DNA from: a bacterium
Lineage (GTDB): Bacteria > UBA4055
Reading direction: 5' to 3'
Length of the DNA stretch: 64,000 nt
Assembly: GCA_029559475.1 (NCBI GenBank)
Contig: JAKQBN010000055.1
Span: 7,089 to 71,088 of the forward strand
Position numbers and translations under genes: made by a program
Notes under the pieces: generated by a model
Database searches by the model: none
What the model saw: the letters and a program-made list of their open reading frames with translations, nothing else
Told to the model about the DNA's origin: nothing
Shown: positions 40,180 through 51,693 of the stretch, one piece after another
Layout: each line of letters starts with the position of its first letter
How positions within the stretch are numbered: the stretch's first letter is position 1

Positions 40180-40731
40180 TCATTTTTCAAGAAATTGAAT
40201 AGCTTTATATATATTTGAGTATGATCCTCCTTTAAGTTCTAATTCTGAAGCGTATTGAACGGCTTTATACTGTCCTGAAATTAATTTTTCAACCCACTCT
40301 CTATTTTTTAGAAATTTCTCAGTTTTATCATAGCTCTCAATATATTTCAGTAACTCTTTTTTCAATTCGCCATAACTAGAGTATCGCTTATTGCGCTGAA
40401 CAAAATGGATAAGGAACCAGAATTCTATTGAAGGCAGGCTGTCGCAAATCAGCACGTTTTTATTGTCTTTGTATCTTTTTCTAAACTTTTCCAGTTTATC
40501 CTTCTCAACGTCATTTCTTTGTGATACATCAGCATCGAATACGCATATCGCTACAGCATCGGCTTCTAAAATTTCCTTTACTTTTTTCTCTATCTTCGAG
40601 ATGCAGGTATTACTGTCGCAAAATCTTGGACTCACACTATATTTATAATCTTTAAGAATTTTCAGGTGTTTAAAGTAATATTTTTCTGTTACACCTTCTC
40701 CGATTATATGTATTGCTTGCTTTAATTTCAT
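40180..40731 (-). CDS. RloB/AbiLii-like protein
   Basis: The N-terminal IHIIGEGVTEKYYFKHLK matches the RloB signature (cEGe.TE..Yf). It sits 7 nt downstream of the ATPase partner. Confidence 0.75.
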   Translation of the reverse strand: MKLKQAIHIIGEGVTEKYYFKHLKILKDYKYSVSPRFCDSNTCISKIEKKVKEILEADAVAICVFDADVSQRNDVEKDKLEKFRKRYKDNKNVLICDSLPSIEFWFLIHFVQRNKRYSSYGELKKELLKYIESYDKTEKFLKNREWVEKLISGQYKAVQYASELELKGGSYSNIYKAIQFLEK

Positions 40732-40738
40732 TATAATC

Positions 40739-42034
40739 TTAATCTATATTAGGCACTGCTCCGAATTTTCCGTATTTATATGCTTTCTGCAGAGATGAGA
40801 TTCTGTTAAGACCGTTGAAACCTGTAAGGGGATAAAGCTTTGTCGAGCCGTCTTCTCTTTTTTCCGTGAACCAGAAATTATCCTTTCTAAGAAGATCTGT
40901 TTCGTCGAATAAATTGTCATAGTGAGTCGCAACAAGCACCTGAGCTTGGTCTGAATTACGTAGAAAATGCTCAAGAACATATTCAATAAGCCTTGGATGC
41001 AGCTTTGATTCTATCTCATCTATCGTAATGAATGCGTTATCCTCAATCGATTTAATAATTGCTCCGAACAAACCGAATATTCTTTTTGTACCCTCTGATT
41101 GCCATTCTATAGGCAGTCCGTAAATTTCTTTTCTACCATCGCTGACGACAGTATGCTTGAATTCAGTTACAGGATATTTAAAACTCTTATCTTTTTTTAA
41201 ATCTTCAATAACAGATGCGCGAATACTTAAAAAATTACCTATTGTCTGAGCCTGTTTTATAAAATCATCATCAACACTCTGAACGAATTCTTTGACATTT
41301 ATATCAGAAATATTAAAATCAGCCTCTTTCAGGCACTCAAGCATTTTTAATTTATGGCTAGGGTTTGTTTTAATTAATTCCTCTGAAAAATGCTGTAAAG
41401 GATCGTTAGGCACGATTGAATTGAAAACATGATCAAATAGCCATTTTGTAACATCGCTCAAGCCGTTCAGATAAGCATTTATCTTTCTCAATGCCGCCAG
41501 GACAGACATATTTTTCAAACATTTTACATTTAGTTCATCTTGAGTGATCTTGCTGATATTGTTTTTTCCTTTAAAAACTATTTTGGAAACGTCCGACTTC
41601 TCGTCATAATTTCTTTCAAAAAGAGTAGCAGGCTGAGTACCCGGATACATATCAAGCTTTTCATAAAGGACAGCTTTCTGATCGACCTCTAAATAATAAA
41701 CATATTTGATCCCATCTTTATAAAAAACAAGCTTAAACACGCTCGGGTGGTTTCTGCTTGTTTTATCGAGAAGAAAAGGTATTGCATTGGTGCCGGAATA
41801 CTTATTGTCGGTTCCTATAAACCAGAAATTTATAAGGAACTGAAAAGCAGCTATAAGATTAGACTTTCCGGACGCATTGGAACCATATAAAATGCCCAAC
41901 TTTAACAGGCGGACCCCTTTTGCGGCCTCTACAACATGATGATCTTCAAAAGTCCTGTCTTTCGAAGCTTCGAAAGAATATGTAACTTCATCTCTGAACG
42001 AGAGAAAATTCTTGATTGTAAGTGAATGTATCAT
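40739..42034 (-). CDS. AAA_21/ABC-type ATPase, AbiLi-like partner of RloB
   Basis: Walker A YGSNASGKSN, Walker B/D-loop FITIDEIESKLHP. Confidence 0.8.
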   Translation of the reverse strand: MIHSLTIKNFLSFRDEVTYSFEASKDRTFEDHHVVEAAKGVRLLKLGILYGSNASGKSNLIAAFQFLINFWFIGTDNKYSGTNAIPFLLDKTSRNHPSVFKLVFYKDGIKYVYYLEVDQKAVLYEKLDMYPGTQPATLFERNYDEKSDVSKIVFKGKNNISKITQDELNVKCLKNMSVLAALRKINAYLNGLSDVTKWLFDHVFNSIVPNDPLQHFSEELIKTNPSHKLKMLECLKEADFNISDINVKEFVQSVDDDFIKQAQTIGNFLSIRASVIEDLKKDKSFKYPVTEFKHTVVSDGRKEIYGLPIEWQSEGTKRIFGLFGAIIKSIEDNAFITIDEIESKLHPRLIEYVLEHFLRNSDQAQVLVATHYDNLFDETDLLRKDNFWFTEKREDGSTKLYPLTGFNGLNRISSLQKAYKYGKFGAVPNID

Positions 42035-42474: not shown

Positions 42475-43209
42475 ATGGCAACGACTAAGATAGAATGGAC
42501 AGAATCAACATGGAATCCGATCACCGGATGCACAAAATTATCCGCAGGCTGCAAATTCTGTTATGCCGAAGTAATGGCGAGAAGGCTCAAAGCTATGGGA
42601 CAGCCGAAATACAAAGACGGTTTCAAGCTTACGCTCCATCCCGACACGCTGACAGAACCTTACACTTGGAAGAAGCCTAAAATGATCTTCGTGAACTCAA
42701 TGAGCGATCTCTTCCATAAAGATGTCCCCGTTGATTACATACAAAAAATATTCAAAGTCATCAAAGACAATCCTCAGCATGTATTTCAGATACTAACAAA
42801 AAGAGCCGACATATTAAGATACTACGACAGTGAAGGCTGGCTTGACTGGCCGCATAACCTTTGGATGGGCGTGACAGTGGAAGATTCAACCGTAACATCA
42901 AGAATTGACTGCCTGAGAAAAACAAAAGCAAGAGTAAAATTCCTCTCCTGCGAACCGCTCCTAAGCTCATTACCCGAACTCAACCTACAAGCAATAGACT
43001 GGGTCATCGTAGGCGGAGAAAGCGGAAGAACACCGCGCCCGATCAAAGAAGAATGGATAATCGAAATAAAAGAACAATGTGAAAAAGCCGGAACAGCATT
43101 CTACTTTAAACAGTGGGGCGGCACCAACAAAAAAGAAGCAGGCAGGCTGTTACAAGGCAAAAGGTACGATCAAATGCCTGAAATGGTCGAGCAAGAAACT
43201 CTAATATAA
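42475..43209 (+). CDS. DUF5131 (phage Gp37/Gp68) family protein
   Basis: MATTKIEWTESTWNPITGCTKLSAGCKFCYA, with three Cys, is the family N-terminus. Also GGESG...FFKQWG. Confidence 0.85.
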   Translation: MATTKIEWTESTWNPITGCTKLSAGCKFCYAEVMARRLKAMGQPKYKDGFKLTLHPDTLTEPYTWKKPKMIFVNSMSDLFHKDVPVDYIQKIFKVIKDNPQHVFQILTKRADILRYYDSEGWLDWPHNLWMGVTVEDSTVTSRIDCLRKTKARVKFLSCEPLLSSLPELNLQAIDWVIVGGESGRTPRPIKEEWIIEIKEQCEKAGTAFYFKQWGGTNKKEAGRLLQGKRYDQMPEMVEQETLI

Positions 43210-43279: not shown

Positions 43280-44647
43280 CTAATTCTTAAATATTTTATC
43301 GTATTTTGTGTAATCGAAATTTGGTCCTAGAATTTTACTTGATTTATCTTTTAATTGTTTTGTTATACGATATATTTCATTGTTGTTATAGAATTCCCCA
43401 TTCTCATTGATTAACTTAAATAATAACTCAAAATCACTATTGTCAAAATCGTTTAAAATTTTGCTAATGATATTATCATACGTGCTTAAAGCAGAATAAT
43501 AAGTAAACGATTTTCCACAATAATTTATCAAGAATGTCTTAACTTGAATTTGAGATAAAACAATTTTTGATCTATTATAAAGCTGCATCAGAGCATCTTC
43601 CTGTATACAGTCGTATAGATTTACATTTACATAGCCATTAGGCTCAATAAGTATTTTATCATGTATTTCTTCGATTTTAGATATATGCGCCTCAATGCTA
43701 TTACTTAGAAAATATGCTACTGTAAATAAAGAAATATTTTTGTTAGCTTCGATTTGTATATAATTTTTTACTGTCGAATCTAGGACATTATATATTTCTG
43801 GATATTTGCTAATATATGATGTAAGAGCAGTAATTCGAGAACTACCTTGATTTATAGCCTTATCGTTTATGCTACAAGAAAAATTACTGGGTTTAATATT
43901 GTTGAATTTTTGTGAATTTTGCTTGATTAAATTTATAAAATCTTCAAGATGTTTTTCTGTAAGTGTCTTAATACAAAATACATTCAGATAACGGTTTTTT
44001 TCGCATTCAGAATTATCAAGAATAAATGTAAGTTTCCATAAAGATTCGAATAGTTTTTCTCTCACTGGTTTGTTAATTCTCGAGTAGTATCGTACATTTA
44101 GGAAATCTTCTAATCCCTCAGTACGGACTCTTTCAAAATAATCTGTAGTATTTTTTAAAAATTCATCAATTATCTTTTTACATAATAACGCTTCTTTCTC
44201 AAAGACAATTTCAAACATATTTCTCATGTGGTTTCTAACATTTTCCGGTGTCGGATTTATTAATCTATTTCCATTGTCAATTAATGGATGAGCAGCTATG
44301 TTTCGTTCTTTAACAAGTTCATTTATTCTATGAAATTCTACATCATTAATTAATTCAGTACTATCTTTTATTTCTTGTAACAATGTTTTTTCCCAGTCTG
44401 AAGATGTAGGTTTTAGCTTTTGTTCGTTCTTGATTTTATCAATTATTCTTTTTGCGTTATTATCAGAATATATTTCATCGAGCAAAATCAATTTGTTCAT
44501 TAAATCATAGACTACTACTGAATACAAAACGACTATTGCAGAACGATAATTACCGTTATGATAACTTGATAAGACTTCTTTTAAGTATTCTTTAGTTTGT
44601 ATGTTTGGAATTTTCTTTATCTCATCTTCAATAATAAATTCATCCAT
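43280..44647 (-). CDS. HEPN-like (Rx4H) N-terminal domain protein with unknown C-terminal region
   Basis: Helical N-terminus (NYRSAIVVLYSVVVYDLMNKL) followed by VKERNIAAHP (R-x4-H). aaggtg RBS. Last gene of the six-gene operon. Confidence 0.5.
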   Translation of the reverse strand: MDEFIIEDEIKKIPNIQTKEYLKEVLSSYHNGNYRSAIVVLYSVVVYDLMNKLILLDEIYSDNNAKRIIDKIKNEQKLKPTSSDWEKTLLQEIKDSTELINDVEFHRINELVKERNIAAHPLIDNGNRLINPTPENVRNHMRNMFEIVFEKEALLCKKIIDEFLKNTTDYFERVRTEGLEDFLNVRYYSRINKPVREKLFESLWKLTFILDNSECEKNRYLNVFCIKTLTEKHLEDFINLIKQNSQKFNNIKPSNFSCSINDKAINQGSSRITALTSYISKYPEIYNVLDSTVKNYIQIEANKNISLFTVAYFLSNSIEAHISKIEEIHDKILIEPNGYVNVNLYDCIQEDALMQLYNRSKIVLSQIQVKTFLINYCGKSFTYYSALSTYDNIISKILNDFDNSDFELLFKLINENGEFYNNNEIYRITKQLKDKSSKILGPNFDYTKYDKIFKN

Positions 44648-44679: not shown

Positions 44680-45639
44680 TTAAGAAAATTTATTTAAAAG
44701 AGTTAAAATCTTTTTAATTTCATATTTTATTTCAGGGCTATCATTGATAGAATCAGCGAATTCAGAATCAGTAATGAGCTCTCGAAATGCTCTCATCTTT
44801 TTATAGATACTATCTATTTTTCCAGTATCTTTAACCTGTTCGAAACCATTATAAATATCTTTTTGCCCCGATGCTATCTCAGCGAGAACTTTTTTCGCTT
44901 TTTTATCAGGACACTTAGCTATTTCACCTACCTTTCTGATGTCAGAAGCCTGTTGTATTTCTTTGTTTTTTATTTGCAAAACGAGAGTATTAACTAATTC
45001 AGGATGAGATTTGGTTGCATTATTTATAGATTTGTTCTTGAGCAACTCGTCATAATAACTCCAATTTGTCGGTTCCAAGTCTTTAGTCTCAATCATAAAA
45101 GAGAAGACTTTTAAATATCTTTGAGCATCTCCTTTTTTTATACCTAACTCTTTAGCCATTATGTCAACAGATAGCTTTGATTCTTTACTTCGTCTGTACA
45201 AATATCCAGCCTGCTCGTATGGACTCCAGTCTTTTCTTCCTATAATGTGATATTGCCCAAGAAGAGTAAAAATAGATGATTCATCAATGTCTGAAGGTAA
45301 AATTAAACATTTAACTTTACCCCATGAAATAGGATCTTTTTGACATAAAATTCGATATGCCGCTAATCGGCTATTTCCTTCAAGTACAACTAAATCACCA
45401 TCACGCACAATTAAAGGATCAATTAGACCGCCATTACTTTCAATGGAAAGCCTAAGTTGCTTCACATGCTCCATCGAAATCATCAATTTTTCAATGTTAC
45501 TTTGATCGGGCTTGATGTCATCAGAAACTCTTAGGGCACTATAGACTCGAGGATTATCGACATAGAACTTAAGAGAAGCTTGGAGGATTTCCTCTTCTTT
45601 TACTTGAAACTCTTTTTTGCCAATTGTCAATGTATTCAT
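44680..45639 (-). CDS. ParB/Srx-fold N-terminal domain protein (paralogue 2)
   Basis: DNPR, NGGLIDPLIVRDGDLVVLEGNSRLAAY, GRKDWSPYEQAGYLY. Its start overlaps the SNF2 stop (ATGA). Confidence 0.7.
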   Translation of the reverse strand: MNTLTIGKKEFQVKEEEILQASLKFYVDNPRVYSALRVSDDIKPDQSNIEKLMISMEHVKQLRLSIESNGGLIDPLIVRDGDLVVLEGNSRLAAYRILCQKDPISWGKVKCLILPSDIDESSIFTLLGQYHIIGRKDWSPYEQAGYLYRRSKESKLSVDIMAKELGIKKGDAQRYLKVFSFMIETKDLEPTNWSYYDELLKNKSINNATKSHPELVNTLVLQIKNKEIQQASDIRKVGEIAKCPDKKAKKVLAEIASGQKDIYNGFEQVKDTGKIDSIYKKMRAFRELITDSEFADSINDSPEIKYEIKKILTLLNKFS

Positions 45640-47120
45640 GTTTCACTCTCACTATTTTCATTTAAAATATCTTTAACAAGCTCACCAAAACTATAATCCG
45701 CAACATTTTGGTATTTCTTCAAAACATAATCTCCTTGAGCTAAAAAAGCTGCATTCTGTTTGGCTTTGAGTAAAAGGTCAATCCAAATGTCAATACTATC
45801 TTTAACCATCAAATTATAGATGTTGCAAGTTTTTGTTTGTGAAATACGATGAATTCTATCTTGTGCCTGCAAATAATCATCAAGATTAAAACCGCGATCG
45901 TAAAAAATGACATTGTTCGCAACTGTCAGTGTAAGTCCTTCTTTCGCGGATTGAGGCGTAGCAAATAATACTTTAGCATCTCCATTTTTAAACTCACGTA
46001 CAGAATGTATTCTTTCTTCAATTTTCATTTTTCCGGTAATTTTTACTGCATTAAGGTACTTATACTTTTTACAGAAATGATCAACATTGTCAATAAAAAT
46101 TGACCAAACTATAATCTTTTCATCTCTATTGATTATTTCTTTGATTAATTCATCTAGTTTAGCTTCCTTACCTGAAAAACAGCAGTATAAGTCATCTAAT
46201 AATCTAGGATTTGATGTAATCTGTACCAGTCTTAACAATCTTTTTATTGAATCAGAAGATTCATCAAGTATAGCCACATCATCCCGTTGCAATAATAGTT
46301 GCATCTCTGTTCTAACTTTATCATACATCATGTATTGGGTCTTTTCAAAATCGACAAACACATCATAATACACTTTGTTTGGAAGTGTTATAATTCCGCT
46401 GCTCTTAGTCTCACGTACAGTAAAATCTTTAATTCTCGTAAAAATATTAGATACAGATGATTCAAACACATCTCTTTTTACTTTGTTATTGGACAAATCA
46501 TTAGTAAGATTTGTTGTCGATTTGAACTCAGAGAAATTAGTTCCCAGGCTCTTCCCGTTATCGAGGAAATAAATCTGAGCCCAAATATCATATGGTCTAT
46601 TAGCCACAGGTGTGCCTGTCATTATAACCCGAATCTTAAATAAACTAGAAATCTCGAAAAAATCTTGTGTTAGTCTAGAATCGGGATTTTTTAGTTTCGT
46701 AGATTCATCGATAATAATGGCAACATTCCTAGTCTTTAGAAAAAGCTTGAATCTCACTAACTCACCAGATATAGTTTCAAAATTCGTAATTATTACTCTA
46801 GTAGCGCTATTAAATACATAGTAATTTTCTGTCCGTTTACTTGTTAGGATTCTAGGTGTAATATTAGTATGTATTTCAAACTCGCCACGCCAATTTTCAA
46901 CTAATTGCTTTTTTGTGACAATAAGTACGGTATCAATTTCCAAAAATTCTAACCAATATAAAAGAAGATCAATTGCTATTTTCGTTTTACCTAGTCCTTG
47001 CTCATGAAAGATTGCTGCATATGGCAAATTTTTCATTGCTTCAAAAGCTTCGTATTGATATGGGAATGCATTTAGCTTCGCTGTTAGATTTTGTCCGGGT
47101 AAATTGATTATTTTTCTCAT
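45636..47120 (-). CDS. compact SNF2-family helicase/translocase
   Basis: Motif I HEQGLGKT, motif II IIDESTKLKN, motif VI QAQDRIHRISQTK. 494 aa with no accessory domains. Confidence 0.9.
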   Translation of the reverse strand: MRKIINLPGQNLTAKLNAFPYQYEAFEAMKNLPYAAIFHEQGLGKTKIAIDLLLYWLEFLEIDTVLIVTKKQLVENWRGEFEIHTNITPRILTSKRTENYYVFNSATRVIITNFETISGELVRFKLFLKTRNVAIIIDESTKLKNPDSRLTQDFFEISSLFKIRVIMTGTPVANRPYDIWAQIYFLDNGKSLGTNFSEFKSTTNLTNDLSNNKVKRDVFESSVSNIFTRIKDFTVRETKSSGIITLPNKVYYDVFVDFEKTQYMMYDKVRTEMQLLLQRDDVAILDESSDSIKRLLRLVQITSNPRLLDDLYCCFSGKEAKLDELIKEIINRDEKIIVWSIFIDNVDHFCKKYKYLNAVKITGKMKIEERIHSVREFKNGDAKVLFATPQSAKEGLTLTVANNVIFYDRGFNLDDYLQAQDRIHRISQTKTCNIYNLMVKDSIDIWIDLLLKAKQNAAFLAQGDYVLKKYQNVADYSFGELVKDILNENSESET

Positions 47121-47530
47121 ACGATACTTACGCTCCCGATGTCGTTTAAAATATGAAGCTTGACCGATGAATTTTGTTCCGCTTTGATTCTTTTAGCCAT
47201 GTTTTTTATTCTTGCGTATGAATAAATTGATGTACAAATAATAATATGGCTTTCTTCATCAAATAATGAGGCTTCTCTAATATATGATCTATACTGTTCA
47301 ATACTGTGTTTACGGTCAATATCATTCTCAGTTTTAGCTTCTCCAATTATCAAACGACGAGTATCTTTGTAATATAGGTCAGGTATAAAATTACCAATCG
47401 TTCTTTCTGGTCTTCTGTTACTATCGGGTAAATCTACTAGCACAAGTGCCCTTGCGTCGAAAGGTAATAATAAAAATACATAATTAGCAATTTGGCGAAC
47501 ATAATTTATATGTTCAATAGATTCAGCCAT
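47117..47530 (-). CDS. small PD-(D/E)xK-like nuclease-fold protein
   Basis: FIPDLYYKDTRRLIIGEAKT gives D...ExK with 14-residue spacing. 137 aa. Its stop overlaps the SNF2 start (ATGA). Confidence 0.5.
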   Translation of the reverse strand: MAESIEHINYVRQIANYVFLLLPFDARALVLVDLPDSNRRPERTIGNFIPDLYYKDTRRLIIGEAKTENDIDRKHSIEQYRSYIREASLFDEESHIIICTSIYSYARIKNMAKRIKAEQNSSVKLHILNDIGSVSIV

Positions 47531-47534
47531 AAAA

Positions 47535-48545
47535 TTAATCTTCAGGTTGTATGTCTTTCAATATTTCTTGGAGACCTTCAAAAATATCAAGGAGCATTGT
47601 TTTCTTTTTTTCGTATTCGGGATCACTACCTAAATTTTTTACTTCTTTGTATTCTAGCCTGTTAAGCGCTTCTAAGAATTTTGTACCAAGAACATCATAT
47701 GTAAACTTATCTAGCTCATTATGTGTATTCTCAGTTATAGCTATCTTTTTTACAGCTTCTGAGATATTTCTTCTTAAAAAAACTTTTAACGCTTCTGGTT
47801 CCTTCAGTACTGCGGGTAATTGACGCACATTTTGCGCTGTATCGATGTTATCATCGACAACCCATTTTGCAAAATCATTTTTTGTAAAACCTTTATTGGT
47901 TAGTGCATAAGTTATTGTTGACCGTTGAAGCTCAACAAATTTTGAAAATTCTCTTATATCAAAATCATCACCTTTTTCTTTTACTGCTTTGGCATAATAT
48001 ACTTGCATGTCGCGGTATGCACTTATAAGCTTATTTATTTCTGAAGTATTACCACCGCACATGGATATGATATTTGCCATTGGCAAGCGTTCAATTTCAC
48101 TCAGTTGATGTAGATATTTAGCTTTTGAATACGGATCCCAATCACGAGGACCAACTAAATGTGACTGTAATCTAATGGAATGTTTTTCTGAGTCAGTTAA
48201 GCATTCGTAAATAATGGAACTGATTTTACTCCAAGGGCCTGTTGGATTTAACGCTAGAAATTCTTTATAAATTTGAAGTCTCGTATTCCCTTCGATTACG
48301 ATTAAACGTCCATCCGGTTCTTTACTGACTATAATTGGATGAATAATTCCTCCACTGACCTTAATAGACTCCTTTAGAGTATTATAAGATGTAGATGAAT
48401 CACCGTTACCTGGGTTTGTTAATGCAAGTGCAATAGCTTCACTTGTTATTTCACCCGGATAAATCTCAAGATATTGCTTGATTCTTGGATTGTCGAGGTC
48501 AAGATGAATTTCGCTAATGTCCAATTCAATGTATTTAGGTTCCAT
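47535..48545 (-). CDS. ParB/Srx-fold N-terminal domain protein (paralogue 1)
   Basis: LDLDNPR, SGGIIHPIIVSKEPDGRLIVIEGNTRLQIY, GPRDWDPYSKAKYLH. agaggg RBS. Confidence 0.7.
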   Translation of the reverse strand: MEPKYIELDISEIHLDLDNPRIKQYLEIYPGEITSEAIALALTNPGNGDSSTSYNTLKESIKVSGGIIHPIIVSKEPDGRLIVIEGNTRLQIYKEFLALNPTGPWSKISSIIYECLTDSEKHSIRLQSHLVGPRDWDPYSKAKYLHQLSEIERLPMANIISMCGGNTSEINKLISAYRDMQVYYAKAVKEKGDDFDIREFSKFVELQRSTITYALTNKGFTKNDFAKWVVDDNIDTAQNVRQLPAVLKEPEALKVFLRRNISEAVKKIAITENTHNELDKFTYDVLGTKFLEALNRLEYKEVKNLGSDPEYEKKKTMLLDIFEGLQEILKDIQPED

Positions 48546-48556
48546 ATTTTACCCTC

Positions 48557-49810
48557 TTATTTAGATTTATACTGATTAATTTCTTCGAATCTTAAATCAT
48601 AATACTTCTTTGCGATTTCAGGAAACTCCATTTCAAAATCAATCATTGCTTTATAACAAGAGCAATATCCTTTTATGATGTTTGTATGGGTCAGGTGGTA
48701 TTCCTCATTTGCTTTACAGTACTGTCTAAAGCTTTTCTTTTTTAAAAAGTTTGGTTGATTACACCATCTTGCCAACTGTATATACATTGATTTATATTTA
48801 GATTCTTTATAATCCTCATATCTCATTATATAAGGCAAACATCCATGTTCCATTATTATTTTAATACGTTCAAAAGTATTCTCAATATCTCGTTCATCCT
48901 GGCTATCGTATCCGGTAAGGACATATAATTTTGTGGATTTTTTGTAATATTTTTTCCAAATCTTCAAGCTGTTGGAAATTTTTTCAGCATCTTCAATATG
49001 GTCAAATGCAAATATAAAATCACCTTTGTATTTAACTTTTGCAAGCCGTTCAGCTTTATCAGCTGTCATTAGTCGTATATCTAGACCCTGTCTAAATTGG
49101 AAAGGCTTCCCAGTAGCTATTAATGCATCAAGAATGGTGTAGAAGTCAGGTGAAGCCATAAAATTGTCATCCCATAAATATATGCCTCGTCTTTTTGGGT
49201 CTAAAAATTCCGAGATTGGAGAGTGTTTAATAACACGGTCATATTTCCTGTTAACACAATAACTACATTTTCTAAAACAACCTCTTGTCGTGAATCCGAT
49301 TGAGTAATTCAAGTAATCTTCATATCTAATAACATTCTTAGTAAAATTATCTGTTTGACTAGAAATAAAGTCTGTATAGAGTTCATAATCAGGCATGTGA
49401 TGTTCTATCTTATCCGGTAGATCTGGACTGTCCATCCCATAGAAACCTGTACCTCCGATAATTATCTCTTTATTATCAATTCTCTTTTGAATAACAGCTG
49501 GAATTTTAGTAAAATTAAAAACTTTAGACATTATTAAAAAATCATAAATATCTTCTTTCAATTTATCTGCAATTTCAGAGTAGTCACATATTAATTTAAC
49601 GCTATGTCTGAACTCTTTGCAATATCCCGATATTTTAAGTAAAGCAAGATTTGGATGCTTTGTGCCTTGGTCAAGAAGGTCGGCATCAATTATTCCAATT
49701 TTAAATTGTTTGTCGTTAGCCTCAATTAATTCACAAAAAATGAATCCTAATTTATTTTCGAGGAGTTTGTAGTAATTATTTTTTTGAAGGTTTTCTTTTT
49801 TACTTAACAT
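48557..49810 (-). CDS. radical SAM protein with N-terminal Rossmann/B12-binding-like extension
   Basis: GFTTRGCFRKCSYCVN gives CxxxCxxC. About 170 aa precede the cluster (IGIIDADLL...LALLKISGY). ATG 49810 is preferred over TTG 49819. Confidence 0.8.
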   Translation of the reverse strand: MLSKKENLQKNNYYKLLENKLGFIFCELIEANDKQFKIGIIDADLLDQGTKHPNLALLKISGYCKEFRHSVKLICDYSEIADKLKEDIYDFLIMSKVFNFTKIPAVIQKRIDNKEIIIGGTGFYGMDSPDLPDKIEHHMPDYELYTDFISSQTDNFTKNVIRYEDYLNYSIGFTTRGCFRKCSYCVNRKYDRVIKHSPISEFLDPKRRGIYLWDDNFMASPDFYTILDALIATGKPFQFRQGLDIRLMTADKAERLAKVKYKGDFIFAFDHIEDAEKISNSLKIWKKYYKKSTKLYVLTGYDSQDERDIENTFERIKIIMEHGCLPYIMRYEDYKESKYKSMYIQLARWCNQPNFLKKKSFRQYCKANEEYHLTHTNIIKGYCSCYKAMIDFEMEFPEIAKKYYDLRFEEINQYKSK

Positions 49811-50030
49811 AATTTCCAAGTTTTAAAGTTACAGAATGCTTAACTGAGAGGAAAGTGAGGACTATTTTTGATAGCAATAGACCACTTTTTGTTTAATAGA
49901 ATGAGATATTTTAATGAACTGCTTCGTTTTATAGCTGCGTTATCGTTTCATTTATGACATTAGGAAAATAAAACCTTATGAATGAATAATCAAGTAAATT
50001 GCTTTAGTATTTTGTCTGATATAATTCGAA

Positions 50031-50087
50031 TTAATTAACTTTCTTATACCTGAATACTGCGTAGTTGGTTACGACTGTGCTGTAATG
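50031..50087 (+). repeat. direct repeat R1: displaced copy of the ABC-2 permease 3' end
   Basis: Aligns to 51835-51892 with 4 mismatches and 1 indel over 58 nt. Its minus strand encodes STVVTNYAVFRYKKVN*, against STVVTAYAVFRYKKVN* in the real gene. Confidence 0.9.
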
Positions 50088-50109
50088 TAAAATATATTAT
50101 ACAAATGTA

Positions 50110-50138
50110 TTGACAAAAATAATTGACATGTGTATATT
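50110..50138 (+). promoter_or_regulatory. near-consensus sigma70 promoter of the XRE-Panacea gene
   Basis: TTGACA (50110-15), 17-nt spacer, TATATT (50133-38). A second TTGACA lies at 50123-28. aggagg RBS before ATG 50165. Confidence 0.55.
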
Positions 50139-50164
50139 GCAGCTACATATTATACAGGAGGTTT

Positions 50165-51022
50165 ATGATGGCGATGAATGAATACATTAGAAAAATGAGA
50201 GAAATGAAAAATATTTCTCAAGAGATCGCCGCAAAAGAACTGGGATATACAAGACAGACATATATACAGATCGAGAGCGGCAGCAGAGATATTACTTTAA
50301 GCGAGTTGAAGAAACTTTCGGCTATGTTTGATATTCCTTTTAATAAATTTGTGACCGAAACAGAACCTGACACATTTAACATAGATTTTGAGGAAAAGGA
50401 AGCGGATATTGAGTCAAAGGAGATAAGGATAAGTGTTCCGCAGAACAGAGTCGGTAAATTCAAGGAGGTTCTGCTTTATATTCTGTCTAAGGCGGGAGCA
50501 AAGCCGAACATTGGTGAGACAGCTATTTATAAACTTTTGTATTTTATTGATTTTGATTATTACGAGAAGTATGAAGAACAGTTGATAGGGGCGAATTATA
50601 TCAAAAATCATTATGGACCGACTCCAGTGATATTTAAAAAACTGACTGAAGAAATGATCGCTGATAATGAGCTTGAAGTGATCGAAAAAACTTATTATGA
50701 ATTCAATCAAAAGAAATATTTACCGAGAAGATGTGCCGATTTAAGTAAAATATCCGCCCGTGAGATTAAGCATATTGACGAGGAACTGGAAAGGCTAAGT
50801 GATAAAAATGCAGCTGAGTTGAGCGAGCTGTCGCATAAAGATGTCCCGTGGATCACAGCGAAGGAAGGTGAAACGATTGAATATGAAGGCGTTTTTTACC
50901 GCACAGGAGATACTTCGGTGAGATATAAAAAATTGAAAGATCGTATGTCCATGGCTGCGGAAGCTTTGTATAACGATTATTGTTCTGATAAAGAGCTCAC
51001 TGCATTTACCGATCTTATTTGA
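50165..51022 (+). CDS. XRE-family HTH fused to Panacea (DUF4065/SocA-like) antitoxin-type domain
   Basis: The HTH is ISQEIAAKELGYTRQTYIQIESG. The Panacea-like core is GETAIYKLLYFIDFDYYEKYEEQLIGANYIKNHYGPTP. The ORF-track start at 50123 is actually a -35 box. Confidence 0.8.
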   Translation: MMAMNEYIRKMREMKNISQEIAAKELGYTRQTYIQIESGSRDITLSELKKLSAMFDIPFNKFVTETEPDTFNIDFEEKEADIESKEIRISVPQNRVGKFKEVLLYILSKAGAKPNIGETAIYKLLYFIDFDYYEKYEEQLIGANYIKNHYGPTPVIFKKLTEEMIADNELEVIEKTYYEFNQKKYLPRRCADLSKISAREIKHIDEELERLSDKNAAELSELSHKDVPWITAKEGETIEYEGVFYRTGDTSVRYKKLKDRMSMAAEALYNDYCSDKELTAFTDLI

Positions 51023-51080
51023 ATAAGTAGGTTTTGAGAACTCAACTATGCGGAGTGTAGTTAGCTTGAGGGATGGTATT

Positions 51081-51497
51081 TTAATTTTTAAAAGGATTTA
51101 TGATTTTAAGAGTGTTTTCAATCAGTTGATTATGCTGCATATCTTCGCTGTATAAAATTGAACATCCCGACTCCAATGCGGAAGCAATTACTAAGCTGTC
51201 CCAATATGAGAATCCATACCGGTCTTTGATTTCCATAGCCTTAATTACATCAAAAGTGCTTATATCGACTACATTAAAATTAGCTATAGTCTCGATAATG
51301 ATATCATTTACTTTGCCTTTTGTATTGATAGCTTTTTTTACTAGTGCTGAATAAAGCTCATTTAAAATTTGCGTACTTATGATAATATTTTCAAAATTTT
51401 CAGTAATTAACTTATCGGCTATATTTTTTTTTGAGATATCTTCGCTGTAATAAAGGTAAACCCATACATTGGTATCAATAAAAACCTTATCTGTCAT
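51081..51497 (-). CDS. PIN-domain toxin (VapC-like)
   Basis: MTDKVFIDTNVWVYLY N-terminus, DSLVIASAL, YSEDM acidic residues. Confidence 0.8.
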   Translation of the reverse strand: MTDKVFIDTNVWVYLYYSEDISKKNIADKLITENFENIIISTQILNELYSALVKKAINTKGKVNDIIIETIANFNVVDISTFDVIKAMEIKDRYGFSYWDSLVIASALESGCSILYSEDMQHNQLIENTLKIINPFKN

Positions 51498-51693
51498 ATA
51501 ATTCTTCCCGGTTGAACTTATAGCCCTTTTCAAATTTCATCTGATATCTTTTAACAAAATCAAGAAAACTTTTCTTTTTGTCGTGTTTTTCATCAATAAT
51601 AATGACTTTAATTTTCTGCCCGTCAACCAACCCGAATTCTTCATCTAAAGTCAGGTTATTGTTATTGTATGTGGCGGTAACTACTTTAAACAT
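51487..51693 (-). CDS. putative antitoxin (DUF104-like)
   Basis: 68 aa. Overlaps the PIN start by 11 nt. ATYNNNNLTLDEEFGLVDGQKIKVIIID resembles the DUF104 pattern. Confidence 0.5.
   Translation of the reverse strand: MFKVVTATYNNNNLTLDEEFGLVDGQKIKVIIIDEKHDKKKSFLDFVKRYQMKFEKGYKFNREELYDR

Follow-up and report, generated by a model that had tools for sequence, protein, structure and literature searches.

The window (the whole 64,000-nucleotide stretch of DNA that was analysed) carries on its minus strand an operon encoding, in order, a radical SAM protein (rSAM), a ParB-like protein, a PD-(D/E)xK nuclease, an SNF2 helicase, a second ParB-like protein and a homolog of PD-T7-3. The first five genes are spaced by 11, 4, −4 and −4 nt, and 32 nt lie ahead of the sixth. 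The preliminary description had placed the radical SAM gene at 48557–49810 and at the head of the operon, and both statements hold. On the minus strand, its reading frame begins with an ATG at 49810, extendable to a TTG at 49819, ends with a stop codon at 48557–48559, and encodes 417 amino acids of the phrog_9298 family. The operon sits in a defence island of low GC content (31–37% GC vs 42–45% in the flanks). The 312-nt intergenic region upstream of it (49811–50122, minus strand), common to the operon and a divergent HTH-SocA/Panacea gene, presumably holds the operon promoter. A promoter scan of this region gave one minus-strand match (50116–50089), and promoter-like sites were not enriched over shuffled sequences. 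The region has no riboswitch or other Rfam match, and thus neither a cobalamin nor a SAM riboswitch precedes the operon.

At its N-terminus rSAM has a B12-type Rossmann-like domain; a cluster loop, a core in the form of a partial TIM barrel and a C-terminal region of helices follow (residues 332–411 are all-helical in the model). The CxxxCxxC cluster motif (GCFRKCSYC) is found at C178, C182 and C185, in keeping with its earlier placement about 175 residues into the protein, and the Rossmann/B12-binding-like region suspected ahead of it is there too, as a domain of the Rossmann B12 type in front of the radical SAM core. This is not a chance motif, since it is invariant among 21 close homologs (alignment A1), and all but one of 46 diverse members of the family have it (alignment A2, which is too variable for a locus scan). 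The DxHxxG motif, already missed in the preliminary description, is indeed absent from rSAM, and H52 is replaced by phenylalanine in 20 of the 46 diverse members. The additional C-terminal cysteines reported there exist as well, namely as four subfamily-specific cysteines (C324, C350, C365 and C381/C383), but their invariance is limited to the close subfamily (A1). Cysteines occupy the corresponding positions in 23, 27, 23 and 11 of the 46 diverse members, respectively, and at 11–27 of 46 they do not constitute a universal auxiliary-cluster motif. A SPASM/twitch domain was rejected: Cys 324, 350, 365 and 383 are dispersed, lack CxxC spacing and are poorly conserved.

The protein is a genuine radical SAM enzyme outside every curated subclass. 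Profile searches gave no significant match in Pfam, NCBIfam or PADLOC; Radical_SAM (PF04055) stays below its gathering score (15.6 bits vs a cut-off of 29.5) and covers residues 174–197 only, and the same model finds weak matches in 14 of 46 relatives, at best 6e-6. The only family recovered is phrog_9298 ("radical SAM domain protein") in PHROG, with an E-value of 5.2e-52 that aligns residues 37–364 to profile positions 2–294 of 305. This HMM check leaves the subclass as unclear as it had first been called. A sequence search of the PDB with rSAM found no match. Its partial TIM-barrel core is the one common to solved radical SAM enzymes. The best structural matches are MgmA and RimO, which act on proteins, MiaB, which acts on tRNA, and AprD4, CysS and TsrM, which act on small molecules; none acts on DNA, a point that counts against a DNA substrate. 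No close structural similarity was seen to solved viperins, QueE or spore photoproduct lyases, as had been anticipated from motifs. Membership of the methylthiotransferases (MiaB/RimO) was rejected, as no cysteine before residue 178 is invariant in A1 (hence no UPF0004 Cys triad) and there is no TRAM domain.

The Rossmann-type domain ahead of the radical SAM core is common to rSAM and the class B radical SAM methylases (MgmA, PDB 9ccb; CysS; TsrM; TokK). In contrast to these, rSAM gives no Pfam B12-binding or Radical_SAM match at the gathering score, and sequence is no guide to whether it binds cobalamin, a point that also weighs against the DNA-modification reading given below. DxHxxG is dispensable for B12 binding in many class B enzymes, and AprD4, a close structural match, has a B12-type domain and no cobalamin. 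The substrates of known class B enzymes are proteins or small molecules; for rSAM, the gene neighbourhoods point to DNA. The family is large (2,940 clusters at 50% identity) and extends through anaerobes of many phyla, archaea, phages and plasmids. A literature search, with most subscription journals outside its coverage, found no published description of the family or of the cassette. Prokaryotic viperins (pVip) and Ophion OpnA resemble rSAM in being radical SAM enzymes within an anti-phage locus; Ophion itself, a different three-gene system, was rejected for this locus. By analogy with viperin, which makes ddhCTP, rSAM could make a small molecule. This would be a modified nucleotide that is toxic to the replication of phages or acts as a signal for the ParB, helicase and nuclease proteins encoded downstream, with the NTP-binding ParB-like proteins as possible sensors. 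We regard this as rather unlikely.

The four genes that follow rSAM form a block of their own. ParB1 (47535–48545, minus strand, 336 aa) is a ParB/Srx-like protein with the motifs DxxNPR and (I/V)EGNTR, in which E85, G86, N87, T88 and R89 are invariant. It matches the PADLOC profiles PDC-M38A (4e-7) and PD-Lambda-5_A (1e-6), Pfam ParB_N (0.016) and a ParB-like PHROG family, and, weakly, PDB profiles of Noc, SbnI and ParB. Its ParB/Srx-like paralog ParB2 (44680–45639, minus strand, 319 aa), with the motifs NPR and LEGNSR and invariant E87, G88, N89 and R91, matches PDC-M38A (3e-10), the ParB-like phrog_4715 (4e-12) and phrog_620 (9e-5), with only spurious matches among PDB profiles; the two paralogs match each other at about 1e-15. 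Both ParB assignments rest on weak profile matches, which counts against the model proposed below. Between them lie a small PD-(D/E)xK-type nuclease, p137 (47117–47530, minus strand, 137 aa), and an SNF2-family helicase/translocase (45636–47120, minus strand, 494 aa). The catalytic signature of p137 is E3...D51...E64-A-K66; among 15 orthologs E3, D51, A65, K66, T67, D70 and H75 are invariant and E64 is kept in at least 90%. Its fold assignment rests on this motif because p137 has no match in the profile libraries searched. In an archaeal locus (L085) nuclease and SNF2 helicase form one protein, with the nuclease at its N-terminus. The SNF2 protein, very highly conserved among cassettes, is recognised by SNF2-rel_dom (4e-24) and Helicase_C (2e-19), and in PADLOC by the helicase region of ZorD (9e-43) and by DpdE (1e-32). 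Zorya and Dpd were both rejected with PADLOC: the operon has no ZorA, ZorB or ZorC, and, besides the match to DpdE, no DpdA (tRNA-guanine-transglycosylase-like), DpdB or DpdC.

The ParB1/p137/SNF2/ParB2 block adjoins a gene of the rSAM family in 31 of 34 complete metagenomic loci with flanks, where that gene may be first, last or divergent, and the two recur together, in differing gene orders, in Bacteroidota, Bacillota, Kiritimatiellia and Thermoplasmata archaea. The three exceptions carry DNA adenine methylases (Dam-type) in the position of rSAM and a restriction enzyme on the other side of the block. In L140 (Pfam-confirmed), a Dam and an N6/N4 methyltransferase lie upstream and a DpnII endonuclease downstream, a gene layout repeated in L168; in L167, a Dam lies upstream and a DUF6996-DUF6997-DUF7226 protein downstream. 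On plasmids, this last protein and a DNA adenine methylase make up a cassette of two genes. The rSAM gene is thus interchangeable with Dam-type methylases beside one and the same block. The layout recalls type II restriction-modification, with the block set between Dam-type methylases and DpnII or the DUF6996-DUF6997-DUF7226 protein, and mirrors loci in which rSAM, the block and a domain that we call d225 (below) follow each other. Unlike such systems, the window has neither a SAM-dependent DNA methyltransferase nor a type II endonuclease of the classical sort; its nuclease is a 137-aa PD-(D/E)xK protein that would work with a helicase. Among the 34 complete metagenomic loci the block was never seen without either rSAM or a methylase, whereas rSAM often occurs without the block, an asymmetry expected of a modification gene. 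This context suggests that rSAM takes the part of the DNA methyltransferase in a restriction-modification-like system. The preliminary description had regarded rSAM as dedicated to the helicase, nuclease and ParB set; the linkage stands, but the dedication does not, as the block is found in only 20 of 80 species-level rSAM loci.

The other species-level loci contain PbeA/PbeC (30), a pair of a PLD and a PD-(D/E)xK nuclease (7), GmrSD-like genes (4) or DndFGH (2), so that a restriction-type module is recognised in 63 of the 80. The matches are strong for PbeA (3e-194), PbeC (4e-77) and DndF (4e-147, with two large genes behind it); the remaining partners are an enzyme with GmrSD_N and GmrSD_C, and a PLD nuclease with PDDEXK_11. 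Seventeen of the 80 loci have no recognisable partner, which speaks against the DNA reading and, together with the differences in neighbours between genomes, is what could be said for a housekeeping or metabolic enzyme that neighbours defence genes by chance. Such an enzyme, assigned to a housekeeping family and with varying neighbours, was what would have undone the earlier view of the gene. The neighbours do vary, but among defence-type restriction modules, and no curated housekeeping family was matched; moreover, a nuclease/helicase-type module adjoins in the 63 loci just mentioned, gene order is kept across phyla, the family is present in phages and plasmids, and the locus in the window is the low-GC island described above. 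We consider this possibility extremely improbable.

At least 49 of the 80 loci also encode d225, a domain of about 225 aa that is fused to the C-terminus of rSAM, has a gene of its own beside rSAM or forms part of the PLD nuclease by fusion. When modelled with AF2 (pLDDT 93), it finds matches among winged-helix DNA binders and in the FokI recognition domain. The domain is similar to DUF7226 (hhalign E 9.5e-5), which is also the only, weak, match that Pfam gives on d225; a literature search found no mention of "DUF7226". This fused domain of DNA type is one argument against rSAM modifying a protein, as do MgmA and RimO, or an RNA, as MiaB does with tRNA, and thereby regulating the defence genes. 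In addition, rSAM has neither the N-terminal Cys triad of MiaB and RimO nor a TRAM domain. Furthermore, its partners are wholly different between the ParB block, PbeA/C, DndFGH, GmrSD-like and PLD contexts, and the phage copies have none at all, so that no common protein substrate is encoded nearby. A protein or RNA target is therefore quite improbable.

The exchange of partners has a precedent in the Dnd/Ssp phosphorothioate systems, in which one modification module is swapped among several restriction modules (DndFGH, PbeABCD, SspE), just as rSAM relatives adjoin PbeA/PbeC, DndF-G-H-like and GmrSD/SspE-like genes. The CxC/Pbe neighbourhoods were reportedly first described in the ABC-ATPase paper of Krishnan et al. 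in 2020. For some restriction modules of these types, a phosphorothioate or methylase module has been described as the modifying companion, and Dnd/Ssp also involve proteins of the ParB superfamily (DndB, and DUF262 in SspE) (PMC10853773). The rSAM loci differ from them in lacking DndA/C/D/E and SspABCD, the candidate modifier being a true radical SAM protein, and the ParB/nuclease/SNF2/ParB block of the window is none of the published Dnd/Ssp restriction partners. With no modification or partner genes of these systems among ten window proteins (PADLOC), membership of Dnd/Ssp/Pbe was rejected. In the Dpd 7-deazaguanine system, too, a DNA-modifying enzyme (in the window, a candidate one) is accompanied by a ParB-like protein and a helicase of the SNF2 type; the chemistry of Dpd would differ from that of rSAM. 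According to PMC10853773, Pbe-type systems and DndFGH can work even where no modification partner is present, and adjacency to them is therefore not in itself proof of a modification role.

Based on the above data, we favour, by a narrow balance of confidence, a model in which rSAM is a DNA-modifying enzyme that supplies the self-mark for interchangeable restriction modules. We infer from genomic context (guilt by association) that DNA is its most likely substrate. Using a [4Fe-4S] cluster and SAM, possibly with a corrinoid, rSAM would mark the host chromosome covalently, and the co-transcribed block would restrict incoming DNA that lacks the mark: the ParB-like paralogs, as NTPase/clamp proteins, would be loaded onto DNA, translocation would fall to the SNF2 motor and cleavage to the small PD-(D/E)xK nuclease. 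We likewise infer that the mark protects self DNA, as well as this division of labour and any role of cobalamin. As a guess, the mark may be a C-methylation or a functionalised pyrimidine 5-methyl group, which fits the fold and the C5-methylase neighbours best. It is worth noting that a phage DNA thymine dioxygenase requires a ParB-like activator on double-stranded DNA (PMC13229309), and that phage clusters for thymidine hypermodification include radical SAM genes (PMC5889632). These ParB-dependent 5-methylpyrimidine dioxygenases (5mYOX/TET-JBP) share with the rSAM loci the association of a base modifier with a ParB-like protein, there a needed one, and lie in phage clusters with C5 methylases (PMC13229309); they depend, however, on O2 and 2-oxoglutarate, whereas the rSAM family comprises putative oxygen-sensitive radical SAM enzymes found in anaerobes.

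Relatives of rSAM are also carried by viruses (17 GenBank phage records and 182 IMG/VR contigs). There rSAM is an orphan: a defence partner module was found in only 2 of 80 viral loci fetched, and the usual order is a ParB-N6/N4 methyltransferase, rSAM and a C5 methyltransferase. Of 79 viral loci analysed, 50 have a recognisable DNA methyltransferase within 6 kb and 28 have it immediately adjacent. Across the family as a whole, one member has the C-terminal piece of a C5 methylase fused upstream. The phage copies bear on the proposal that rSAM is an effector or processor of foreign nucleic acid, which would damage or crosslink invading DNA by radical chemistry, or remove or alter phage DNA modifications and so enable the nuclease. 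Such a role would share the DNA-centred context of the model above. 5'-Deoxyadenosyl radicals can take hydrogen from the thymine methyl group or from positions on the sugar, a chemistry known from spore photoproduct lyase, which counts in its favour, and so does the argument that Pbe-type systems and DndFGH work without a modification partner (PMC10853773). However, orphan phage copies are widespread and co-oriented with protective methyltransferases, the position of rSAM in Dam/DpnII-flanked blocks is that of the methylase and not of the endonuclease, and the asymmetry between rSAM and the block is that of a modifier. We judge an effector role rather unlikely, too.

The self-mark model can be extended to the whole family. 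Tentatively, and with somewhat less than even confidence, we propose that its members are post-replicative DNA modifiers with an undescribed mark. With it, anaerobic bacteria and archaea would label their own DNA for at least five restriction modules that can replace one another, and their phages would use it as anti-restriction armour. Examples of such marks are a cobalamin-assisted C-methylation or the 5-methyl functionalisation of thymine or 5-methylcytosine, and the family would then correspond, under anaerobic conditions, to DNA methyltransferases or TET/JBP dioxygenases. If rSAM marks DNA, it would represent a new type of enzyme for modifying DNA, and a radical-chemistry route would join methylation, phosphorothioation and 7-deazaguanine insertion as genome self-labels. 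The result would be an epigenetic mark in anaerobes of gut, rumen and sediment that standard methylome pipelines probably fail to see. It would also explain how Pbe-, DndFGH- and GmrSD-type modules without Dnd or methylase partners tell self from non-self, define a new ParB/nuclease/SNF2/ParB restriction block, and give a function to thousands of "hypothetical proteins" unseen by curated models. Cultured carriers and isolated phages exist, which makes the question directly testable. Among the carriers, Clostridium paridis YIM B02565 has the ParB block with a long rSAM (L057), Acidaminobacter sp. JC074, Peptacetobacter hominis, Enorma massiliensis and Mitsuokella jalaludinii DSM 13811 have loci of the Pbe type, and Flavonifractor plautii ATCC 29863 has one of the PLD type; the phages include Clostridium phage phiCT453B and the Bacteroides phages LoVEphage and BKO1-TP3.

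Lastly, the sixth gene of the operon (43280–44647, minus strand, 455 aa) matches PADLOC PD-T7-3 over its full length (E 5e-104), and whether it is part of the system is uncertain; in E. coli, PD-T7-3 is a stand-alone defence gene. The window cassette has no d225, not even as a relic (HMM search over six frames, best E 0.16), and the PD-T7-3 homolog in its stead is a further observation against the DNA reading. A divergent d225 was rejected as the identity of this protein (hhalign probability 0.3%, BLASTP not significant), and it is also unrelated to the DUF7226 protein. The sixth position of the cassette is variable: close relatives of the window locus (L011, L012) encode the winged-helix d225 there.

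The radical SAM gene of the window lies on the minus strand (48557-49810), runs from an ATG at 49810 to a stop codon at 48557-48559, with a possible extension of the frame to a TTG at 49819, and encodes 417 residues; an identical protein is recorded in a Clostridiales MAG as a "hypothetical protein". The gene coordinates bear out its position as the first gene of a close-packed minus-strand operon, as the preliminary description had it. After an 11-nt gap follow a 336-aa ParB-like protein (ParB1, 47535-48545), a 4-nt gap, a 137-aa protein (47117-47530) overlapping by 4 nt a 494-aa SNF2 helicase (45636-47120), which overlaps by 4 nt a 319-aa ParB-like protein (ParB2, 44680-45639), and, 32 nt further, a 455-aa homolog of PD-T7-3 as sixth gene (43280-44647, minus strand; full-length match, E 5e-104). 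The last of these carries the sequence KERNIAAHP, whose Rx4H pattern recalls the motifs of HEPN RNases.

The SNF2 identity of the 494-aa protein is unambiguous at the level of sequence (SNF2-rel_dom 4e-24, Helicase_C 2e-19; PADLOC ZorD 9e-43, DpdE 1e-32). The 137-aa protein matched nothing in any profile library searched, and its 15 orthologs have in common E3 ... D51 ... E64-A-K66 (no ortholog departs from E3, D51 or K66, and at least 90% have E64), a predicted PD-(D/E)xK signature. It is fused onto the N-terminus of the SNF2 helicase in an archaeal locus (L085), and the two proteins may act as one nuclease-helicase unit. ParB1 and ParB2 are paralogs (cross-hits of about 1e-15) in which the NPR and EGN(T/S)R motifs are invariant. 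Their matches to ParB-type profiles are modest (PADLOC PDC-M38A 4e-7 and 3e-10, PHROG ParB-like 4e-12, Pfam ParB_N 0.016), and the ParB1 profile finds Noc, SbnI and ParB weakly in the PDB (E 0.04-0.5).

We collected metagenomic loci around the SNF2 gene of the cassette that carry the complete ParB1/137-aa protein/SNF2/ParB2 block with at least 2.2 kb on each side. A gene of the radical SAM family stands directly beside the block in 31 of these 34 loci, leading the set as it does in the window or closing it in a longer form; included here is a divergent branch of about 680 aa that is followed by a GHKL-type ATPase. Among 80 species-level GTDB loci of the family, 20 contain the block, with the radical SAM gene first, last or divergently transcribed. 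Because composition is kept while order shifts, across phyla and domains, the block and the radical SAM protein are a functional unit; that the latter is an unrelated housekeeping enzyme is extremely improbable. The divergent radical SAM proteins (674-687 aa; family HMM E of about 1e-25, CxxxCxxC present) close a variant of the cassette in L151 (11567-15028), L156, L164, L166 and L170. The protein of about 480 aa that comes next in L151 matches GHKL/HATPase_c_3, and genes of similar size take this place in L164, L166 and L170.

In the three exceptions, DNA adenine methyltransferases occupy the position of the radical SAM gene. In L140 (999-7443), Pfam identifies two methylases upstream of the block, one Dam-class and one N6/N4, and, on its downstream side, a DpnII endonuclease; L168 (5902-12340) matches it in gene layout and sizes; and L167 (6613-12627) has a Dam-class methylase upstream and a DUF6996-DUF6997-DUF7226 protein downstream. 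The block interrupts type II restriction-modification cassettes here, with the methylase gene or genes on one side and the endonuclease gene on the other. On Megamonas and Enterococcus plasmids the DUF6996-DUF6997-DUF7226 protein and a DNA adenine methylase form a two-gene cassette with the layout of a type II restriction-modification pair. In these exceptions the block is thus flanked by an "M" gene on one side and an "R/recognition" gene on the other, and the M position is the one that the radical SAM gene takes elsewhere.

Based on these data and on the contexts described below, we lean toward the radical SAM protein being a DNA-modifying, self-marking enzyme. It would act on DNA to supply a covalent self-mark, and the ParB/nuclease/SNF2/ParB block would restrict DNA that lacks it. 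In the loci seen, the block always accompanies a radical SAM or methylase gene and the radical SAM gene often occurs without the block, an asymmetry that fits a modification gene. We consider it unlikely that the enzyme is instead an effector on foreign DNA. DpdB assists DpdA. A phage thymine dioxygenase requires its ParB on dsDNA (PMC13229309). Since ParB-family proteins are thus known to work alongside DNA-modifying enzymes, one of the two paralogs may recruit the radical SAM enzyme or open the DNA for it; when the modification enzyme is swapped, however, both remain beside the nuclease-helicase.

The other cellular contexts among the 80 loci are PbeA, PbeC and a 146-aa gene (30 loci; PADLOC PbeA 3e-194, PbeC 4e-77), a PLD nuclease with a PDDEXK_11 protein (seven; Pfam), GmrSD_N with a GmrSD_C/HNH enzyme (four; Pfam), and DndF with two large genes (two; PADLOC DndF 4e-147). 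The remaining 17 loci have no recognisable partner; short contigs are among them, as is at least one confirmed prophage, and one locus of this group has the gene between terminase and portal genes. Neither Dnd/Ssp sulfur-transfer genes nor methyltransferases were found among the recurrent neighbour clusters of the family loci. The literature describes PbeABCD (the CxC ABC-ATPase system) and DndFGH as restriction modules that pair up with modification modules of the phosphorothioate or methylase kind and are also able to stand alone (PMC10853773).

Restriction-modification logic predicts a DNA-recognition domain common to the modifying enzyme and the nuclease. A winged-helix-like domain of about 225 aa that resembles DUF7226 (d225; motifs DIPQFS, KYGENHxK and SxSTxxRRxSN) is fused to the C-terminus of the radical SAM protein in forms of 625-640 aa, and elsewhere is a separate gene beside it, follows ParB2, or is fused to the PLD nuclease. 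The pair of radical SAM protein and d225 therefore parallels that of methylase and DUF7226 protein. The window contains no d225 (best six-frame HMM match, E 0.16). In its closest relatives, L011 and L012 (75-78% identity), d225 takes the position of the PD-T7-3 homolog, and no relation between the two was found. Since it is also absent from L018, L035, L060, L073 and L085, d225 is frequent, not obligatory. It also forms the N-terminus of a protein of about 800 aa with sigma-70 regions 2 and 4 (L004 15202-17634, also L017, L021 and L023; PADLOC MzaA 1e-30); the sixth position of the cassette is then held by a sigma-factor-like module.

The cluster motif noted in the preliminary description is real: GCFRKCSYC provides CxxxCxxC at C178/C182/C185, and of 46 diverse members of the family 45 have it. 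The window protein stays below the Pfam Radical_SAM cut-off (15.6 vs 29.5 bits, residues 174-197 only) and had no match in NCBIfam or PADLOC or, by sequence, in the PDB; PHROGs is the only library that recognises the family (phrog_9298, "radical SAM domain protein", E 5.2e-52). Its structural matches are MgmA (15.0), RimO (14.8), MiaB (13.7), AprD4 (13.6), CysS (12.4), TsrM (11.6) and TokK (9.2). A methylthiotransferase of the MiaB/RimO type is excluded by the lack of any invariant cysteine before residue 178 and by the helical C-terminus. The extra C-terminal cysteines first noticed in that description are present, though invariant solely among near relatives of the window protein (11-27 of 46 family-wide), and they lack SPASM spacing. 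The N-terminal domain has strongly conserved loops (D42, D44, P53, N54, K59, S61; GGTGF at 119-123) and, in agreement with the initial reading, no DxHxxG motif. What the preliminary description observed on the protein is thus upheld in full. The modeled fold suggests that the chemistry might be a cobalamin-type C-methylation. The closest structural relatives act on non-DNA substrates, which, with the lack of d225 in the window cassette and the fact that Pbe/DndFGH modules are not strictly dependent on a modification partner, is the main weakness of the self-marking proposal. A small-molecule synthase seems to us quite unlikely, and a modifier of protein or RNA very unlikely.

Relatives of 28-45% identity occur in 17 GenBank phage records, with hosts including Oscillospiraceae, Bacteroides/Phocaeicola, Clostridium tetani, Marinitoga and Methanomassiliicoccales, and on 182 IMG/VR contigs. 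In an Oscillospiraceae phage the gene overlaps an upstream DNA methyltransferase gene and is followed by a second one; in LoVEphage and BKO1-TP3 the surrounding genes include DNA methylases, of the Dam or another type, and PAPS-reductase-like proteins; and in an archaeal virus it adjoins a ParB-like gene. A recognisable DNA methyltransferase lies within 6 kb in 50 of the 79 viral loci analysed and is immediately adjacent in 28, the usual order being a ParB-domain N6/N4 methylase, a radical SAM protein of about 365 aa and an HhaI-like C5 methylase, often directly upstream of terminase. In one family member a C-terminal C5-methylase portion is fused upstream of the radical SAM protein. The phage methylase encoded upstream of the radical SAM gene (L090 4776-6017 and many IMG/VR loci, L216-L243) consists of a ParB N-terminal domain, matching PDB 4umk over residues 10-90, and a DpnA/CcrM-like amino-methyltransferase, so that among the phage copies, too, ParB domains are found together with DNA-modifying enzymes. 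A defence partner was present in only 2 of 80 viral loci fetched, and such orphan copies among protective methylases resemble the pattern one sees with anti-restriction modification genes. The C5-methylase neighbours suggest action on the pyrimidine 5-methyl group, which would make the enzyme an anaerobic counterpart of TET/JBP; radical SAM genes are present in phage thymidine hypermodification clusters (PMC5889632).

A full-text literature search found no description of the family or the cassette. It brought up a single defence system with a radical SAM enzyme, Ophion, which has three genes and is a different system, and a comparative-genomics paper on Dnd/Pbe neighbourhoods names cytosine methylases and an "MTaX1" domain and no radical SAM partner. 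The concept of a modification module with exchangeable restriction modules is already known; what seems new is the radical SAM family as the modification enzyme, together with the ParB/nuclease/SNF2/ParB block.

A word-indexed search returned more than 5,900 homologs, none annotated, and when 1.84 billion cluster representatives were searched exhaustively with a profile, 2,940 clusters matched at E<=1e-3, of which 372 reached E<=1e-30. Read from GTDB contigs with one genome per species, the carriers are Bacteroidota, Bacillota, Actinomycetota (Collinsella, Enorma), Spirochaetales, Lentisphaerae, Kiritimatiellia and Chloroflexi and, among archaea, Thermoplasmata/Methanomethylophilaceae. These lineages are mostly from gut, rumen and other anaerobic habitats, as expected of an oxygen-sensitive enzyme. 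An intein interrupts some members (P0177, LAGLIDADG_3 match 9e-9), and for a copy on an archaeal plasmid (LC711081.1, 23156-25117) the annotation names both a radical SAM enzyme and an intein homing endonuclease.

The operon sits in a low-GC island (31-37% at about 36-52 kb vs 42-45% on either side), which also contains an AbiLi/AbiLii pair, a DUF5131 protein and an HTH-SocA/Panacea gene. The AbiLi/AbiLii-like pair (40180-42034, minus strand), an AAA_21 ATPase (PADLOC AbiLi 2e-72) and a RloB-like protein (AbiLii 4e-16), is an abortive-infection module distinct from the operon. The DUF5131 (phage Gp37/Gp68) protein adjoins the operon (42475-43209, plus strand; Pfam 9e-99), matches the PADLOC candidates PDC-M41B/M30B (about 3e-124) and, weakly, NCBIfam "radical SAM mobile pair protein A", and with its Cys-rich N-terminus (CTKLSAGCKFC) is a putative second Fe-S enzyme of the island. 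Divergent from the operon, within 50123-51533, an HTH_3 and SocA/Panacea antitoxin-like gene (plus strand) is followed by a 150-aa ORF (51081-51533, minus strand), and the island may thus end in a toxin-antitoxin pair made up of these two. A second low-GC stretch of the window, at 1-6 kb, contains a 1044-aa ORF.
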